Source: Patescibacteria group bacterium (GTDB lineage: Bacteria > Patescibacteriota > Minisyncoccia > UBA6257 > 02-FULL-45-10c). Taken from it: a DNA stretch of 37,582 bases. Where the stretch lies: NCBI GenBank assembly GCA_023474975.1, contig JAMCXE010000037.1:1-37582 (forward strand), read 5' to 3'. The notes beneath the pieces were generated by a model. It was given only the letters and a program-made list of their open reading frames with translations. It was not told the DNA's origin and searched no databases. This document shows, one piece after another, positions 1 through 37,582 of this stretch (the first letter of the stretch is position 1; each line of letters begins with the position of its first letter). A program made the position numbers and the translations under genes.

Positions 1-3000
1 AAAATAATATGTAAGAATTTTTCAAAAATATGACGCTGATTCTGAAGCGGTATTCCTATGCCATTATCTTTAACAGAGAGAATAAACTCTCCATTTTCCG
101 CTTTGGCGACTATCTCGGTTTCACCGCCTTTATCCTTGGAATATTTAATGGAATTGCTTATCAGATTGGCGATCGTTTGATAAATTTTATCTTCGTCGAT
201 GACAAGCGTATATTTGTCCGGCAAAAAATTCTTACATATTATTTTTACCCCTCTTTGATCGGCAAAAGAAGACAAGTTCTTAACGGCACGATCAATGATC
301 GGGGTTATTTCCGCTCTTGCTAAATTCAGATCGGAATAATGCCCGGAATCTATTCTGGAAATACTAAGCAAGTCATTTATCAAAGCTATCATCCTCTCGT
401 TGCTTTGATAGATCTCTTTCATTTTTACAAGTTGGTCTTCGCTTAGATTTTTCAATTTGTTCTCAAAGAGTGATTCCATCAGCCATTTTATTCCCGTAAC
501 CGGAGTTTTGAGCTGATGCGAAGCCACGGAAACAAATTCGCTCTTTGCCCTGTCCAATTCTTTAGCCACGGTAATATCCCGAAAAGTGCTTACAAAAAAC
601 TTAATTTCGTTTTTATCATCTAAAATGGGGGCAACCTTAATTTCAGCAATATAAGAATCTCCATTTTTTCTTTTATTTGTCATTTCTCCTAAATAAGACT
701 TCTTGTTCAATTTAATGGTCTTCCAAAAATCTTCATAAAACTCCTTAGACATTTGTCTTCCCCAGATCGCAGGGGTTTTACCGATAATTTCATTCAACGC
801 ATAGCCGCTCGTTTTTTCTACGGCGGAATTAGCATATAAAATTACTCCATCGGGGTCTGTAATGATGATATTATCAGCCGCATTGTCTACGGCTAATTTA
901 AATTTATTCAAATCGATATTTTTCATCTCCAACTCTTCGTCCTTTTTAACTATTTCGGTAATATCGGAAAGTATTATTAAAGAAGCCGCGCTACCTCCGT
1001 ATGTTATATTCGATCCTCTGACCAAGACCGTTAATCTTTTTCCCGATTTATTGACAACCACAATTTCATAATCTTTAACTTTTTTTCCGGCCAATCTTCC
1101 CCTCATCTCTTCTGTGGCTAAAGATATATATTTGGGATCAATATAGTCGAAAATAAACGATCCTATTATTTTTTTATGCGGATATCCCAAAAAATTTTCG
1201 GCGGTTTGACTCAACCATAAAATCTTGCCATTTTCATCATAAACCAGGACGTATTCCGTAGGGGGTAAATTAGAGATCAAATTCCTATACCTTTCTTCGC
1301 TTTCTTTTAATTTATATTCTGCTATTTTTTCTTTAAAGATGTTCCTGAATATTCCCTGCAGGTAAGGTTTGCCGTTTATGCGGATAACCGAAGCATTTAT
1401 TGAAACGGGGACTCTTTTACCGCCCCTTACCAAAACCTCAGACGATAAATTCTCTCTCTTACCGGACAGCTGCTCCCTAAAAACCTTCATCGCCTCATCC
1501 AGCAGATCTTTCGGATGAATGTCGCCCACCCTCATAGCGCGGATCTCTTCTCGAGGCCGACCCAAAAGTTTTTCTGCGGATCTATTGCAATCAACTATGC
1601 TTTTAGTAACCGGATCGGCGATAAAAATAGCATCGGCCGATCCTTCAAATAATTCACGATAATTGCGTTCGCTTTGTTTTAATGCTGCCTGATCCCTTAA
1701 TTTTTCTTCTCTTATTCTTATAGACCTTATGCCGTAAGAAAGATCATCGGCAAGCTGCTTCAATAATTTTATTTCAGTACCTTCAAATGTATACGGCTCC
1801 GTCGCATAGATATTAATAGCGCCGATAAGGCCGTTCACGTATAACGGCAAGCTTATGCTTGAAGCGTAGCCGCGTTTAATAGCAGCCGCTCTCCACGGTT
1901 TGAATTTTGGATCATGCAAAATATCGCTGCAAACAACTGCCTTGCCGGTTCTGATCGCCGTTCCGGTTGGTCCCCTGCCATGACTATTATCAGCCCAGCT
2001 GATCTTCAAATTTTTAAGATAGCCCTTTTCAAATCCCGCCCCCGCCACCACCTCAACGCTTTTATTTTTATCGTTTCTGGCATAACCGATCCAGGCCATT
2101 TTATATCCGAAATCAACGATATTTTTACAGATATTTTCCAAAAGTTTTTTTTCATCGGTGATATAGACCAATGCCTCATTGCATTTGCCGATCACTTCGA
2201 TCGTACGAAGAGTTCTTTGTAGTTTTAATTGAATTAGTTTGATATCCGATATATCCGAAGATATTACCATTACCAAGTCCGATCCATCACTATGGATCGG
2301 AGTTAAAACTATTTTATAATAGCTCTGTTTTTTACCTATACGCACCTCCCCCTCAAGCAATTTTTCTTTTTTATTTCTAAGCACATCCTTCAAATCTCTG
2401 ATCGTAAAAGCGCTATCCTCCACTGGAATAAAATCCCAAACAGACTTACCCATCAGTCTTTCGACCGGTAAGCTAAATCTGGCAGCGCTTTTTTTATTTA
2501 AAAATACGAAATTTCCACCAGCGTCTAATATAGTGATCGATTCCGGCGATTCCTCGACCAAGGATCTATATTTCGCTTCGCTGACAGCTAATTCCGTCTC
2601 AAGTTTTCTTTTTTTTGTCACATCCCTGAAAATCAAAACAACACCGACTACTTTTCCTTGACTATTTTTTATGGGAGCGGCGCTATCTTCTATAGATAAT
2701 TTTTTACCATCCCTGCCCATCAACACCGTATGATTTCCCAACCCAACGATCTTTCCGCTTCGCATAACCTTCATTGCCGGATCAATAACTTTTTTACCGG
2801 TCTTTTCATTAAAAATATTAAAAACACGGCAAAGCGGCTGGCCGATCGCTTTCTCTTCCGGCCATTTGGTAAGATCTTGGGCTACATAATTTAAAAAGGT
2901 TATCCGTCCTTTAACATCGGTAACCATAACCGCATCGCCGATACTTTTAAGCGTTATAGAAAGTTTTTCCCGATCTTGATATAAAGCTTCTCTTGCTTTA

Positions 3001-6133: not shown

Positions 6134-7444
6134 TTAAACAGACACTATAATTCCACCGCCGAGCATTTCCGGTCTATTATTTTTTTTAGCCGGAAGATAT
6201 ATAACCGCGGACTGGCCTATCGCCACAAATCTTTGCGGATCATCGAATACCAACTGATATTCATTTTTTTTATGCTTATTTAAAAATAACTTGGCTTTAA
6301 AAAGAGGCTGACGATATCTTACGCGCGCAAGAACAGAAAGACCGGCCGCCAGATCCTTATTTTTTATTTCCGGATCTATTATGTTGACATCCGCAAGCTT
6401 AATTTCTTTTTTGAACAGTGCGGGATTGTTTTCTCCTTGAGCCACTATAATGATATTTGTTTTTAAAATTTTGTCTGCCACATAATATGGCTCGCTGTCG
6501 GGAGTTTTTGCCGCTTTGTCCAAATGCAAGCCATGCCGCTGACCTATGGTGTAATAAAAAACGCCTTCGTGCCTTCCCAAAACATTTCCATCCATATCGA
6601 CGATATTCCCCTTTTTGGGTTTTATATATTTTTTTAAAAAATCTTCCAGCCCCACTTTTCCCAAAAAACAGATTCCCTGCGAATCTTTTTTGGCGGCATT
6701 TAGTAATCCAAATTTTTGAGCCAACTTTCTAACCTCTGGCTTTTCCAGATCCCCAAGCGGAAAAAGACAATGTTTTAACTGCGCCTGAGTTAATGTCCAG
6801 AGAAAATAAGATTGATCCTTGTTTTTGTCTTTTGCAACTAATAAAGAAAAAGATGGTGCGAGTTTTTCGGTATGTTTCGTGCGGCAATTTCGGAGCCCCG
6901 AAATGCTCGGTTTTCGCGAAGCGAAAATTTCGGGGCGAGACTTAGGAGCCGTTTGCCGCTGGAGCAAACGGACTCCGGTGCCGTCAGAAATATACCGAGA
7001 AACGAGCCCAACATAATGGCCCGTCGCCACATAGTCCGTACCCATCTCCAAAGCTTTTTCTAAAAATAAACCGAATTTTATTTCCTGATTACACATCACG
7101 TCGGGATTGGGAGTAATTCCCTTTTTGTAGCCGTCTATCATATATTGCATTACGCGCTTTTTATATTCTTTTTCAAAATCAAAAACATAAAAAGGAATAC
7201 CCAAAACCTCCGCTGCTCTCCGGGCATCTTCCAGGTCCCTATCTGCGCAACCATCCAAATTAAAACATTTTAAATGAACACCCACGACCTCATAGCCCCT
7301 AAACCCCTTCGGGGTCGGGCGACCAAATAATTTTTTAAAATTATTTGGTTTAGCCTGTTTCAATAGACCGGCGGCAACGGAAGAATCTACGCCTCCGGAC
7401 ATACCGACAAAAACTTTCTTTTTCATAAAAGTAAAATACAACAA
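6134..7444 (-). CDS. mnmA: tRNA 2-thiouridine(34) synthase MnmA, carrying two in-frame insertions. The probable true start is MKKKVFVGMSGGVDSS at 7426.
   Basis: PP-loop motif VGMSGGVDSSV, plus TPNPDVMCNQEIKF, ATGHY, KDQSYFLW and GQRHGL. At 436 aa it is longer than typical MnmA (about 360 aa). Confidence 0.9.
   Translation of the reverse strand: MLYFTFMKKKVFVGMSGGVDSSVAAGLLKQAKPNNFKKLFGRPTPKGFRGYEVVGVHLKCFNLDGCADRDLEDARRAAEVLGIPFYVFDFEKEYKKRVMQYMIDGYKKGITPNPDVMCNQEIKFGLFLEKALEMGTDYVATGHYVGLVSRYISDGTGVRLLQRQTAPKSRPEIFASRKPSISGLRNCRTKHTEKLAPSFSLLVAKDKNKDQSYFLWTLTQAQLKHCLFPLGDLEKPEVRKLAQKFGLLNAAKKDSQGICFLGKVGLEDFLKKYIKPKKGNIVDMDGNVLGRHEGVFYYTIGQRHGLHLDKAAKTPDSEPYYVADKILKTNIIIVAQGENNPALFKKEIKLADVNIIDPEIKNKDLAAGLSVLARVRYRQPLFKAKLFLNKHKKNEYQLVFDDPQRFVAIGQSAVIYLPAKKNNRPEMLGGGIIVSV
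6867..6998. mobile_element. 132-nt GC-rich palindromic insertion with imperfect 20-nt terminal inverted repeats, translated in frame within mnmA. It is a candidate miniature inverted-repeat (MITE) or RPE-like element.
   Basis: The left TIR tcggtatgtttcgtgcggca (6867-6886) matches the reverse complement of the right TIR tgccgtcagaaatataccga (6979-6998) at 16/20 positions. Internal hairpins are gccccgaaa..tttcggggc, ttttcgc-gaa-gcgaaaa and ggagccgtttgc-cgctgga-gcaaacggactcc. The length is exactly 44 codons, and the segment is open in several frames on both strands. Confidence 0.45.
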
Positions 7445-17059: not shown

Positions 17060-18058
17060 ATGGATATAAAAAAATTACAAAAATTATTCAAAGACCAGCC
17101 AAAATACCGGCTAGAGCAAACGCAGAAAAGCCTTTTTCAGGGTCTTATTAATAATTGGCAGGAAGCTATGGGATTACCGTTAAATTTAAGAAAAGAACTG
17201 GAAGAAAAATTTCCAATAGAAATATCCGGCAGAACATTCATTTCAAAAGACAAAAACACAATAAAAGCCCTTATTGACCTAGAAGATGGATCTGCGGTCG
17301 AGGCTGTTTTAATGCGACACAAAGATACGAGAAATACCGTGTGCGTTTCTTCGCAGGTCGGCTGCCCAATGGCCTGCTCATTTTGCGCTACCGGAAGAAT
17401 GGGGTTCAAAAGAAATCTTGAAGTCTGGGAGATCCTCGAGCAGATATTATTTTTTGCCCGTTACCTGAAAAAGATCAACGAAAAAATCACCAACGTTGTT
17501 TTTATGGGCATGGGGGAACCATTTATGAACTATCAAAATGTGATGGCTGCCATAAAAATATTAAATGATAAGAACGGATTTAATCTTGGCGCCCGGCACA
17601 TTTCCGTGTCTACGGTTGGAGTAGTTGAGGGAATAGAAAGATTTGCAAATGAAGAACTGCAAATAAATTTAGCCATCTCTCTTCATGCGCCGGACAACAA
17701 AACCCGCTCGGAAATAATGCCGGCCAACAGAAACTATCCAATAGAAAAAATTTTAAAAGCAGTAGATGAATACGTCAAAAAAACCAACCGCCGCGTAATG
17801 TTCGAGTACCTGATGCTCAAGGGCGTAAATGATTCCGATGAACACGCCAAGGCGTTGATCAAGCTTATGAAAAAGCCGCTTTATTTTGTAAATTTGATCG
17901 CCTACAATCCAACCGGAATATATAATCCCTCTCCTGCTTCACGAATAAAAAAATTCAAAGAAATTTTGGAAAGTGCCGGCATAACCGTTACCCAAAGACG
18001 AGAATTCGGACAAGACATCGAAGGAGCTTGCGGACAGCTGGCGACCCTGCCCCGTTAA
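17060..18058 (+). CDS. rlmN: Radical-SAM 23S rRNA (adenine2503-C2) / tRNA methyltransferase RlmN.
   Basis: 332 aa. CPMACSFCATG radical-SAM cluster, GMGEPFMNY, and the C-terminal catalytic Cys in IEGACGQL. Confidence 0.93.
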   Translation: MDIKKLQKLFKDQPKYRLEQTQKSLFQGLINNWQEAMGLPLNLRKELEEKFPIEISGRTFISKDKNTIKALIDLEDGSAVEAVLMRHKDTRNTVCVSSQVGCPMACSFCATGRMGFKRNLEVWEILEQILFFARYLKKINEKITNVVFMGMGEPFMNYQNVMAAIKILNDKNGFNLGARHISVSTVGVVEGIERFANEELQINLAISLHAPDNKTRSEIMPANRNYPIEKILKAVDEYVKKTNRRVMFEYLMLKGVNDSDEHAKALIKLMKKPLYFVNLIAYNPTGIYNPSPASRIKKFKEILESAGITVTQRREFGQDIEGACGQLATLPR

Positions 18059-18105
18059 ATTCCGTCTTACGGAAATCCGCCTCGCATTGCGAGGCGGATT
18101 ATTTA
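18059..18105 (+). terminator. Two tandem hairpins after rlmN. The second has a weak T tract.
   Basis: attccgt-ctt-acggaat, then atccgcctcg-cattg-cgaggcggat followed by tatttaa. Confidence 0.6.
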
Positions 18106-18146
18106 ACTGGGGTAAGAATTAAATTTTGTTTGCTCCGAATTATAAA

Positions 18147-18173
18147 TTAGCAGTCTCTTGACAAGAGTGCTAA
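18147..18173. promoter_or_regulatory. CIRCE operator (HrcA binding site).
   Basis: TTAGCAGTC-N9-GAGTGCTAA compared with the consensus TTAGCACTC-N9-GAGTGCTAA gives 17/18 arm positions. It lies 25 nt upstream of hrcA. Confidence 0.9.
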
Positions 18174-18187
18174 TACTCCCTTAAAAT
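18158..18187 (+). promoter_or_regulatory. Candidate sigma-70-type promoter of the hrcA operon, overlapping CIRCE.
   Basis: -35 TTGACA (18158-18163), 18-nt spacer, -10 TAAAAT (18182-18187). Confidence 0.5.
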
Positions 18188-18197
18188 TGAGGGTATC

Positions 18198-18905
18198 ATG
18201 TTCGACGACAGATCATACAAAATATTGGAGGCCGCAATCAAAGAATTCATAAACGAAGGCGAGCCGGTCAGCTCAAAACAGATCGCCGCAAAATACGATT
18301 TCGGCGTCAAGGACGCAACTATCCGTTCCGAACTTAACGCTCTGACCGAGTCGGGCTTTTTAAGCCAACCCCACACTTCCGGCGGAAGGATCCCGACCGA
18401 TAAGGGTTATCAGTTCTTAGCAAACCGCGTAATGCAAGATATGTTCGAGTCTATGGATAGCTTTCACCGGAATTTCAATAGGATGATGGACATAATGGGA
18501 AATAAGGGGTGGTCAAATTTCGTAGACAAAGTATCGCAAGAAACGAAGCTATTGAGCGCGGGTTTCAGTAATAAAGAGCAAGAAACCTACAAAACCGGAT
18601 TGGATGAACTCTTCGAACAACTAGAAACCAACAGCCGAGAAGATTTCTGCCAGATCGCCAAAGATTTTGAAATGCTAGACGAAAAACTGGAAAAACTTCC
18701 GCAAGTGATAGAAAAGTCCGATTCCCCGCAGGTGTTCATTGGCAAGAAAAGCCCGATCACACAAAGCGAGCATTTATCTGTAATAATTGATTCGTATGAT
18801 ATAAATGGCAATAAATTCTACCTTGCGCTGATCGGACCAAAAAGAATGGATTACGCAAAAAATATCAATTATTTAAATAAAATAAAACATGGAAGAAGAA
18901 AATAA
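18198..18905 (+). CDS. hrcA: Heat-inducible transcription repressor HrcA, short form.
   Basis: The N-terminal winged helix is RSYKILEAAIKEFINEGEPVSSKQIAAKYDFGVKDATIRSELNALTESGFLSQPHTSGGRIPTDKGY. It sits next to CIRCE, grpE and dnaK. It is 235 aa against a canonical length of about 340. Confidence 0.85.
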   Translation: MFDDRSYKILEAAIKEFINEGEPVSSKQIAAKYDFGVKDATIRSELNALTESGFLSQPHTSGGRIPTDKGYQFLANRVMQDMFESMDSFHRNFNRMMDIMGNKGWSNFVDKVSQETKLLSAGFSNKEQETYKTGLDELFEQLETNSREDFCQIAKDFEMLDEKLEKLPQVIEKSDSPQVFIGKKSPITQSEHLSVIIDSYDINGNKFYLALIGPKRMDYAKNINYLNKIKHGRRK

Positions 18906-37289: not shown

Positions 37290-37426
37290 TGTTTCAAATT
37301 ATCCACAGCTCCCGATTCTCTATATTTTCTATAAAATAATATTCGCCTTAATTACTATTTTTATTTTCTAAATTTTATCATTTCCTCAAGCCGTTTCGAT
37401 AATATTAAAAACCGCCGATTTTTAAA

Positions 37427-37582
37427 CTATTTGACATCATCTTTAAAAACATCTTTATTTTCAAATGCTTTTACACTATTAAATTTTTTATTCCATTCTT
37501 CGGGATTACCATAATCAGCGAAATCATAATACCAATCATGATGAAATTTCGGCTTGTGGAAATGATAAAATTTAGAAAATAA
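37427..37582 (-). CDS. 3' end of an unidentified CDS whose 5' part lies beyond the right window edge.
   Basis: My minus-strand translation is open from the edge to the TAG at 37427-37429: LFSKFYHFHKPKFHHDWYYDFADYGNPEEWNKKFNSVKAFENKDVFKDDVK*. It is too short to be listed in the track. Confidence 0.35.
   Translation of the reverse strand, partial: LFSKFYHFHKPKFHHDWYYDFADYGNPEEWNKKFNSVKAFENKDVFKDDVK

Follow-up and report, generated by a model that had tools for sequence, protein, structure and literature searches.

A conserved three-way-junction element carried in frame within the mnmA gene of Patescibacteria

Palindromic DNA that resides in frame inside genes is known classically from the Rickettsia palindromic elements (RPE), whose features have been summarised (PMC10969869). 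Here we describe a structured palindromic element at positions 6855-7009 of a 37,582-nt stretch of DNA from a Patescibacteria group bacterium (assembly GCA_023474975.1, contig JAMCXE010000037.1, positions 1 to 37,582; the window hereafter). It lies within mnmA, the gene for tRNA 2-thiouridine(34) synthase. RPE and the mnmA element are both palindromic, hairpin-forming DNAs of ~100-150 bp that sit in frame in protein-coding genes; in both cases the peptide they encode is tolerated because of its surface location, and both are maintained within essential genes although the genome is reduced. They differ in distribution and in what is conserved. RPE occur in many copies in many unrelated genes, whereas the mnmA element occupies one site in one gene, and its copies outside the open reading frame (ORF) are rare and intergenic. 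Each RPE family encodes a conserved peptide, whereas the peptide of the mnmA element is unconserved and is even read in different frames. A further difference is the fold of the mnmA element, a three-way junction that is conserved and whose closing stem can be replaced.

[quoted passage not shown] Shared features are the small size, the lack of an ORF of their own, ends resembling terminal inverted repeats, a strong fold, and occasional remnants. Unlike MITEs, the mnmA element could be linked to neither a target-site duplication nor a transposase, and across its subfamilies conservation is highest in the core and lowest at the termini. Its copy number, in contrast to that of MITEs and repeat hairpins, is very low. 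In searches of the literature we found no account of an element of this kind, either for mnmA or for Patescibacteria.

The element is a three-way-junction nucleic-acid module whose fold and core sequence are conserved by selection. It is described here on the + strand, which is the better-folding strand and is antisense to mnmA; its extent was taken from covariance model R1, the fold z-score, and the consensus structure. Positions 6855-7009 comprise the segment 6867-6998 that had been picked out in an earlier reading of the sequence alone (the sequence-only reading) plus the outer part of the closing stem. With model R1 the + strand of the element scored 170.8 bits, against 27.3 bits for the - strand, and 6855-7009 was the top + strand folding outlier when the whole window was scanned. 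The predicted folding energy was -77.2 kcal/mol for the + strand (z = -7.9) and -65.2 kcal/mol for the mRNA-sense strand (z = -7.4), and 0/200 dinucleotide shuffles folded as well on either strand. The sequence-only reading had described a GC-rich segment with 20-nt terminal inverted repeats matching at 16/20 positions, three internal stem-loops, and several stop-free frames on both strands, and each of these features was borne out. The GC content of 6850-7050 is 0.52-0.57, compared with a whole-window value of 0.39, and all three stem-loops were recovered. The terminal inverted repeats are real and slightly longer than described (arms 6862-6886 and 6979-7003, 25 nt, 80% complementary), and 4/6 reading frames across the element are free of stops.

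On the + strand the closing stem P1 is formed by the 5' arm GTTTTTCGGTATGTTTC at 6862-6878 and the 3' arm GAAATATACCGAGAAAC at 6987-7003. It is followed by P1b (helix 2), in which GCGGCA at 6881-6886 pairs with TGCCGT at 6979-6984. The P2 arm (6895-6936) consists of an outer stem, GCCCCGAAAT/ATTTCGGGGC, and an apical hairpin, TTTTCGC/GCGAAAA, and it contains a one-sided 7-nt bulge of invariant bases, GCTYGGT, at 6905-6911. Junction J2/3 (GAGACTTA, 6937-6944), with a conserved GAG(A) that is unpaired in the consensus, connects P2 to the P3 arm at 6945-6976 (GGAGCCGTTTGC ... GCAAACGG-A-CTCC), which carries the conserved loop CGCTGGA and a bulged A.

The host gene mnmA is on the - strand at 6134-7426, with an alternative TTG start at 7444. 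It was assigned from its ORF, its Pfam domains (PF03054, PF20259, and PF20258; the tRNA_Me_trans HUP, PRC-barrel, and C-terminal domains), and protein identity, the encoded MnmA being 100% identical to NCBI MCL5017418.1 from a Patescibacteria metagenome-assembled genome. The sequence-only reading had counted ~64 residues between two conserved motifs where MnmA normally has ~19. An alignment of MnmA orthologues agrees with that count: the gap from ATGHY to DQSYF is 65 aa in the window and 16-22 aa in 19 uninserted close relatives, which place the extra residues between these motifs. Solved MnmA structures have merely a 2-3 residue turn at this position. The AlphaFold model of the window MnmA has a mean predicted local distance difference test (pLDDT) score of 90.5. 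Residues ~146-190 are modelled as coil at pLDDT 46-64 between strands 139-145 and 191-197, and elsewhere the score is above 90. Their codons (6857-6991, - strand), delimited with the AlphaFold model, the solved structures, and codon-position identity, encode what we refer to as the passenger peptide. The ~45 residues of the insert are predicted to form a disordered loop that caps a surface beta-hairpin, in line with the surface loop that the sequence-only reading had considered, and the model indicates that the insertion site is a permissive surface loop.

To place the insert among relatives we surveyed the 120 closest MnmA proteins, all of which are Patescibacteria-type; the source labels, where present, are Wolfebacteria, Harrisonbacteria, Paceibacterota, Minisyncoccota, and Berkelbacteria. 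Protein length ranged from 342 to 520 aa and the motif-to-motif gap from 16 to 98 aa. The peptide signature of the element was found in 37 proteins, other inserts at the same site in 64, and no insert in 19, one of the uninserted proteins being as close as 72% identity. P0078 retains a one-arm remnant of the element (P-numbers denote proteins and L-numbers DNA loci of relatives). The element is dispensable, because its occupancy is patchy and remnants of it occur. Inserts of this kind inflate and diversify MnmA lengths in Patescibacteria, and can mislead alignment, orthology calls, and structure prediction.

The DNA of 12 further in-gene copies was obtained through exact protein look-ups and a DNA pattern scan, and all 12 fold into a common architecture. 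In all, fifteen DNA copies have the three-way-junction fold. A closing stem P1 of ~17 bp, continued by P1b and P1c, leads to a junction with the P2 and P3 arms; P2 has the one-sided 7-nt bulge GCUYGGU and the apical hairpin, and P3 has the loop CGCUGGA and the bulged A. In subfamily C (L022), the P1 sequence is wholly different and the core is otherwise conserved. Whole-helix replacement was seen for P3 in L003 and L004 as well as for P1 in L022. A consensus structure was derived with RNAalifold from the alignment of the 13 in-gene copies, which are related and not phylogenetically independent. It has 54 pairs with 97.4% of cells paired, and changes on both sides were found in 39/54 pairs. Double compensatory changes were present in 14/19 pairs of P1, in 15/16 pairs of helices 4 and 5 (P2), and in 8/11 pairs of P3. 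None of 500 shuffles of the alignment (0/500) reached the observed value on any of five measures, and pairing dropped to 35-44% when the 3' partners were slid by 1-3 columns. One G.U pair in P1 (alignment columns 20/143) is kept in 12/13 copies. The invariant columns include unpaired bases of the junction, bulge, and loop.

Conservation by codon position shows what is being preserved. The mnmA flanks of the window and L001 have the signature of a coding sequence, with identities of 0.82/0.91/0.54 at codon positions 1/2/3. Within the element the values are flat (0.94/0.92/0.94), and third positions are far better conserved there than in the flanks, in which they are saturated. The segment GCTCCAGCGGCAAAC around the P3 loop encodes LLQRQ in subfamily A, and its translation in subfamily A' is FAPAA. 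Common nucleotides are read in two frames, and therefore the frame shifts inside the element and then shifts back. The sequence-only reading had set nucleotide-level against amino-acid-level conservation; it is the nucleotides and the structure that proved to be conserved. We concluded that the peptide is a passenger, with selection acting on nucleotides and not on amino acids.

We next asked which strand folds. The strand antisense to mnmA (window + strand) is the more stable one in 13/13 in-gene copies, by ~2-24 kcal/mol. Alignment cells that pair on one strand only number 33 for the antisense strand (G.U) vs. 8 for the sense strand (A.C); within P1 these figures are 25 and 3. A free-standing copy in L025, described below, has the same preference (-78.3 kcal/mol for the antisense-equivalent strand vs. 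-65.9 kcal/mol). Coding constraints do not explain the strand bias, because this copy outside an ORF shows it as well. These observations are suggestive of the antisense strand being the folding strand under selection. A candidate antisense ORF starting from a conserved ATG in the P1 5' arm was rejected: it is interrupted by stops in 3 in-gene copies and by 4 stops in the free copy, and its peptide had no protein homologue.

Further copies were sought with R1 and nhmmer in ~200 kb of Patescibacteria DNA around mnmA loci. Both recovered every in-gene copy (139-172 bits). L025:7242-7396 is a complete free-standing copy, intergenic and located 6 nt past the mnmA stop, with the orientation of the in-gene copies (122 bits, E = 1e-30, fold z = -6.9). 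The in-gene site of the same genome retains only one P1 arm, beside an unrelated 294-nt nested hairpin. L004:1-79, located 2.7 kb upstream of mnmA and in opposite orientation, is a partial copy truncated by the contig end. Its alignment to the 3' half of the element is convincing, and its P3 stem carries compensatory changes of its own. Between ndk and an RNase T gene, L004:10940-10987 is a 48-nt piece with 100% identity to L004:41-88. The L004 genome also carries one in-gene copy. In 14 other loci of the DNA searched, no extra copy was found. The search for further copies that the sequence-only reading had proposed thus returned intergenic ones in relatives (L025 and L004) and none in other protein families. 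We concluded that the element family is low-copy and includes intergenic members and decayed remnants.

Wider DNA scans used the P1-arm pattern ATGTTTCGNNCGG N{80,110} CCNNNAGRAAYRTRCCG, which depends on P1; a core-based pattern would be better suited to copies outside mnmA. All 7 metagenome matches to the P1-arm pattern were at the mnmA site. In the GTDB representative genomes, which evidently do not include the source genome, there were 6 matches; we took these to be unrelated chance matches, since they lie in high-GC genomes, have no mnmA context, and lack the strong fold of the element. Viral contigs gave no match to either the P1-based or the core-based pattern, and phage and plasmid records gave no blastn match to the element. 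Weak covariance-model matches obtained with filters off were rejected as generic hairpins or terminators, or as the unrelated MITE-like L024:4044-4186. The latter is an intergenic element of ~145 nt with near-perfect terminal inverted repeats of ~28 bp (GGGGGTCAACCCCGCACCTTTTGTGGAG...) and fold z-scores of -6.8 and -8.5 on the two strands; its appearance is that of a classical MITE, with a core unrelated to the mnmA element.

The histories of the host gene and of the element do not agree. In L002, L020, L003, L004, and L022 the host genes are mutually close (0.81-0.84 and 0.89-0.92 identity at codon positions 1 and 2), and these five bear three element variants, A1, A2, and C. The window host is more distant from L002 (0.71/0.81 at codon positions 1/2), and its element is 84-96% identical per codon position to those of L002 and L020 (91% by blastn). 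Either the element evolves very slowly with occasional replacement of whole helices, or variants are exchanged between lineages.

The same MnmA loop is filled by other, unrelated hairpin inserts in L021, L023, L024, and L025. L025:6241-6534 is a 294-nt nested AT-rich hairpin, L023 has a 66-nt AT-rich hairpin, and the in-gene inserts of L021 and L024 are ~170 nt long with different folds. The loop behaves as a hot spot for palindromic DNA. The P0006 insert peptide, VIPAKAGIQ...HQVRDD, resembles translations of REP-type palindromic repeats. P0122, a 217-aa MnmA fragment, loses the frame directly after the element (...RSCRTTNKQSSIILCIIKLC) and is either a frameshifted pseudogene or the product of a sequencing error at the element.

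Our preferred explanation, to which we assign a probability of about 0.5, is that the element is selfish or mobile, non-autonomous, and RPE-like in its lifestyle, and that it is recognised in trans as a folded single strand. The nucleic-acid module of ~150 nt rides in frame at the tip of the MnmA surface beta-hairpin. Selection keeps its fold and core sequence, apparently with the strand antisense to mnmA favoured, and does not keep the encoded amino acids. By the open frames, the host translates through the module and produces a loop of ~45 residues predicted to be disordered; for this reason only the frame and the freedom from stops are maintained. A trans-acting factor may use the folded single strand, RNA or single-stranded DNA, to copy or maintain the element, which might persist in mnmA as one of the few harmless places in a small genome. 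The sequence-only reading had likewise proposed an RPE-like selfish palindrome. Much of that proposal stands (the in-frame position, the palindromic and foreign-looking character, the permissive loop, and the copies outside the ORF), whereas dispersal into unrelated genes was not found in the protein collections, the P1-pattern scans, and the ~200 kb around mnmA loci. If the element is selfish, the occurrence of Rickettsia-type palindromic DNA inside essential genes extends to the candidate phyla radiation, in a form that differs in its one fixed site, low copy number, and conserved RNA-like core. It would also provide a clean natural example of nucleic-acid-level selection on a sequence that is translated as a meaningless peptide.

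Several observations weigh against a selfish element. Signatures of mobility, such as a transposase or a target-site duplication, could not be demonstrated. In-gene copies have CGAG at both ends and the L025 copy is flanked by TAG, but CGAG...CGAG may just as well represent a tandem G.A pair that lengthens P1. Within subfamilies A and A', P1 resembles a terminal inverted repeat, but it is wholly different in subfamily C (L022), so that the termini vary and the core is conserved; this is the opposite of a terminal-repeat transposon and fits a host-functional RNA. The strand asymmetry comes mostly from P1 (25 vs. 3 cells), and counted per column it is weaker (16 pair columns with G.U vs. 8 with A.C). 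No sigma-70-like promoter or intrinsic terminator was found flanking the element on the favoured strand. The pieces outside the ORF are three, from two genomes, in the ~200 kb around mnmA loci, and the only complete one adjoins mnmA, which could mean a functional link to that gene. The 37.6-kb window contains no second copy by blastn, nhmmer, or the covariance model with default settings and with filters off. At the protein level, the mnmA-frame peptide matched only MnmA among 1.84 billion cluster representatives, apart from P0121, a low-complexity repeat protein rejected as a spurious match, and the peptides of the other five frames matched nothing among 5.8 billion proteins.

The strongest competitor, which we nevertheless consider rather doubtful, is a structured RNA that functions for the host, either as an antisense small RNA or transcript domain or by acting in cis on the mnmA transcript (on its stability, its processing, or the binding of proteins), and is kept by host selection. 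The element shares with riboswitch, ribozyme, and small RNA motifs of the Rfam type a multi-helix junction, covariation, conserved unpaired bases, and strand-specific G.U pairs. Conservation of unpaired junction, bulge, and loop bases while the stems covary is the usual signature of a functional RNA, and the complete replaceability of P1 on an unchanged core (L022) is in keeping with it. Conservation of the element greatly exceeds that of the host gene's synonymous sites, which are saturated, there is usually one copy per locus, and the G.U pattern favours one strand, with one G.U pair present in 12/13 copies. In L025, moreover, the in-gene copy has decayed and an intact one in the same orientation stands 6 nt after the mnmA stop. 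Unlike motifs of the Rfam type, however, the element lies inside an ORF, is translated, has no Rfam match, and has no promoter or terminator that we could find on the favoured strand. Its absence from 83/120 closest relatives, 19 of which have no insert at all, indicates that it is dispensable. The L004 pieces are unlinked to the mnmA transcript and have the opposite orientation. Were the mRNA-sense strand functional instead, the mismatches would fall on the wrong strand.

Comparison with known RNA families returned no identity for the element. None of the 4227 families of Rfam 15 matched it, even at E up to 10. The best matches within 6800-7060 had E of 1 or more, far under threshold, and only two tRNAs in the window reached the Rfam gathering score. 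By eye we checked and rejected a hammerhead (on junction lengths), a TPP-like CUGAGA, and tRNA-like or anticodon-like loops. Group II domain 5 was rejected because the AGC triad is not conserved in L003. An integron attC site was rejected as well: the element ends (+ strand, GTTTTTC...GAGAAAC; - strand, GTTTCTC...GAAAAAC) fit neither the R'' (RYYYAAC) nor the R' (GTTRRRY) box. Inspection for a pseudoknot between the P2 bulge and J2/3 revealed no consistent covariation. We tentatively raise the possibility, on odds that we likewise put well below even, that the element represents an undescribed class of structured RNA in Patescibacteria, encoded opposite mnmA inside or beside its ORF. The sequence would then be under a double constraint, with an RNA fold and core on one strand and an open frame on the other. 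A functional RNA would be a new motif hidden in coding sequence, in a lineage with almost unknown RNA biology. With an undescribed class of this kind, an essential protein-coding gene would in effect harbour a non-coding RNA gene, of the type missed by RNA-discovery pipelines that are restricted to intergenic regions.

We regard a neutral relic as improbable. Template switching during DNA replication creates perfect stems and apparent compensatory changes (PMC8794818), and the stems of a relic palindrome could be kept by this process, or by arm-to-arm conversion, without selection. Perfect stems and block-wise compensatory changes are indeed common to template-switch hairpins (PMC8794818) and the mnmA element. 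The whole-helix swaps (P3 in L003/L004 and P1 in L022) look like block events, and unrelated simple hairpins occupy the same mnmA site (66 nt in L023 and 294 nt in L025). Template switching fails, however, for the conserved unpaired core, the slow evolution, and the dispersed homologous copies of the element. It leaves unexplained the invariant bases of junction, bulge, and loop, the one-strand G.U bias, the free-standing homologous copies, and an element identity of ~90%, loops included, between hosts whose synonymous sites are saturated at ~0.43-0.45.

Far less credible is an ordinary lineage-specific protein loop that serves MnmA, for example in tRNA binding, with incidental pairing. Arg, Lys, and Ser are abundant in the peptide, which is located on the catalytic domain of a tRNA-binding enzyme, and the insert ends SRYISDGTG and RTKHTEKL are alike across two subfamilies. 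However, the insert has no codon-position signature, its middle is read in different frames between subfamilies, and the third subfamily (L022) has an unrelated peptide on the same fold. The loop is, in addition, predicted to be disordered. A surface loop had been an alternative in the sequence-only reading, to be recognised by a lack of other copies in related genomes together with conservation at the amino-acid level; we observed instead other copies in relatives, flat codon positions, and a frame that differs between subfamilies. On these sequence comparisons the protein loop appears to be effectively refuted.

MnmA does contain a second insert, of 18 aa (KPNNFKKLFGRPTPKGFRG, residues ~25-43, window 7298-7354). 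Its DNA forms two predicted hairpins (z = -3.5 and -4.6), and we considered it as a second palindromic element. This was rejected: ~15 distant relatives conserve the amino-acid sequence of the N-terminal insert, and the AlphaFold model of it is of high confidence. It is therefore an ordinary lineage-specific protein loop, by contrast with the insert encoded by the element.

Removal of the insert before or after translation, by an intron-like, intein-like, or bypass mechanism, seems very unlikely: unusual insertions are a known feature of rRNA genes in Patescibacteria and a long P1 stem would bring the flanks together, but the frame is open in 13/13 in-gene copies and lost in the free-standing one, the better-folding strand is not the mRNA strand, no group I or group II intron or ribozyme model in Rfam matches the element, and Pfam detects no Hint or intein domain in the protein. 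The element does share with inteins and group I introns a specific site in a conserved gene, patchy occurrence, remnants, and incongruence between host and element. Unlike them, it has no splicing or endonuclease domain, would stay in the mRNA and the protein, and is ~150 nt long. Two sense frames are without stops in 13/13 in-gene copies, including the copies obtained with a DNA pattern independent of gene calls, and L025:7242-7396 has stops in 5/6 frames, including all three sense frames. Because the in-gene copies are stop-free in sense frames, unlike the free-standing copy, the sequences indicate that the insert is translated. Excision or bypass is accordingly judged unlikely from the reading frames, and the RNA-level removal offered as an alternative in the sequence-only reading is disfavoured.

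Three other features were noted in the window and in relatives. Just downstream of the partial element copy L004:1-79, the region L004:157-660 begins with a perfect sigma-70 promoter (TTGACA, 17 nt, TATAAT at 157-185), followed by ~470 nt of GC-rich DNA that holds no gene in the gene calls of the contig and closes with a strong terminator hairpin (610-660). This region, for which Rfam gave no match, may encode an undescribed Patescibacteria non-coding RNA. The two ends of the window (1-245 and 37361-37582) each carry an inverted repeat with one arm touching the contig end. One is a perfect repeat of 22 nt with a 201-nt spacer and the other a repeat of 33 nt at 97% with a 156-nt spacer; they are unrelated to each other and to the mnmA element, and look like fold-back assembly artefacts. 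The intergenic segment at 18055-18200, upstream of an hrcA homologue (18198-18905), has a strong fold (z = -6.3). It contains a terminator-like hairpin and, at 18147-18173, a CIRCE (controlling inverted repeat of chaperone expression) operator, TTAGCAGTC-N9-GAGTGCTAA, with one mismatch to the consensus, and is a case of ordinary heat-shock regulation.

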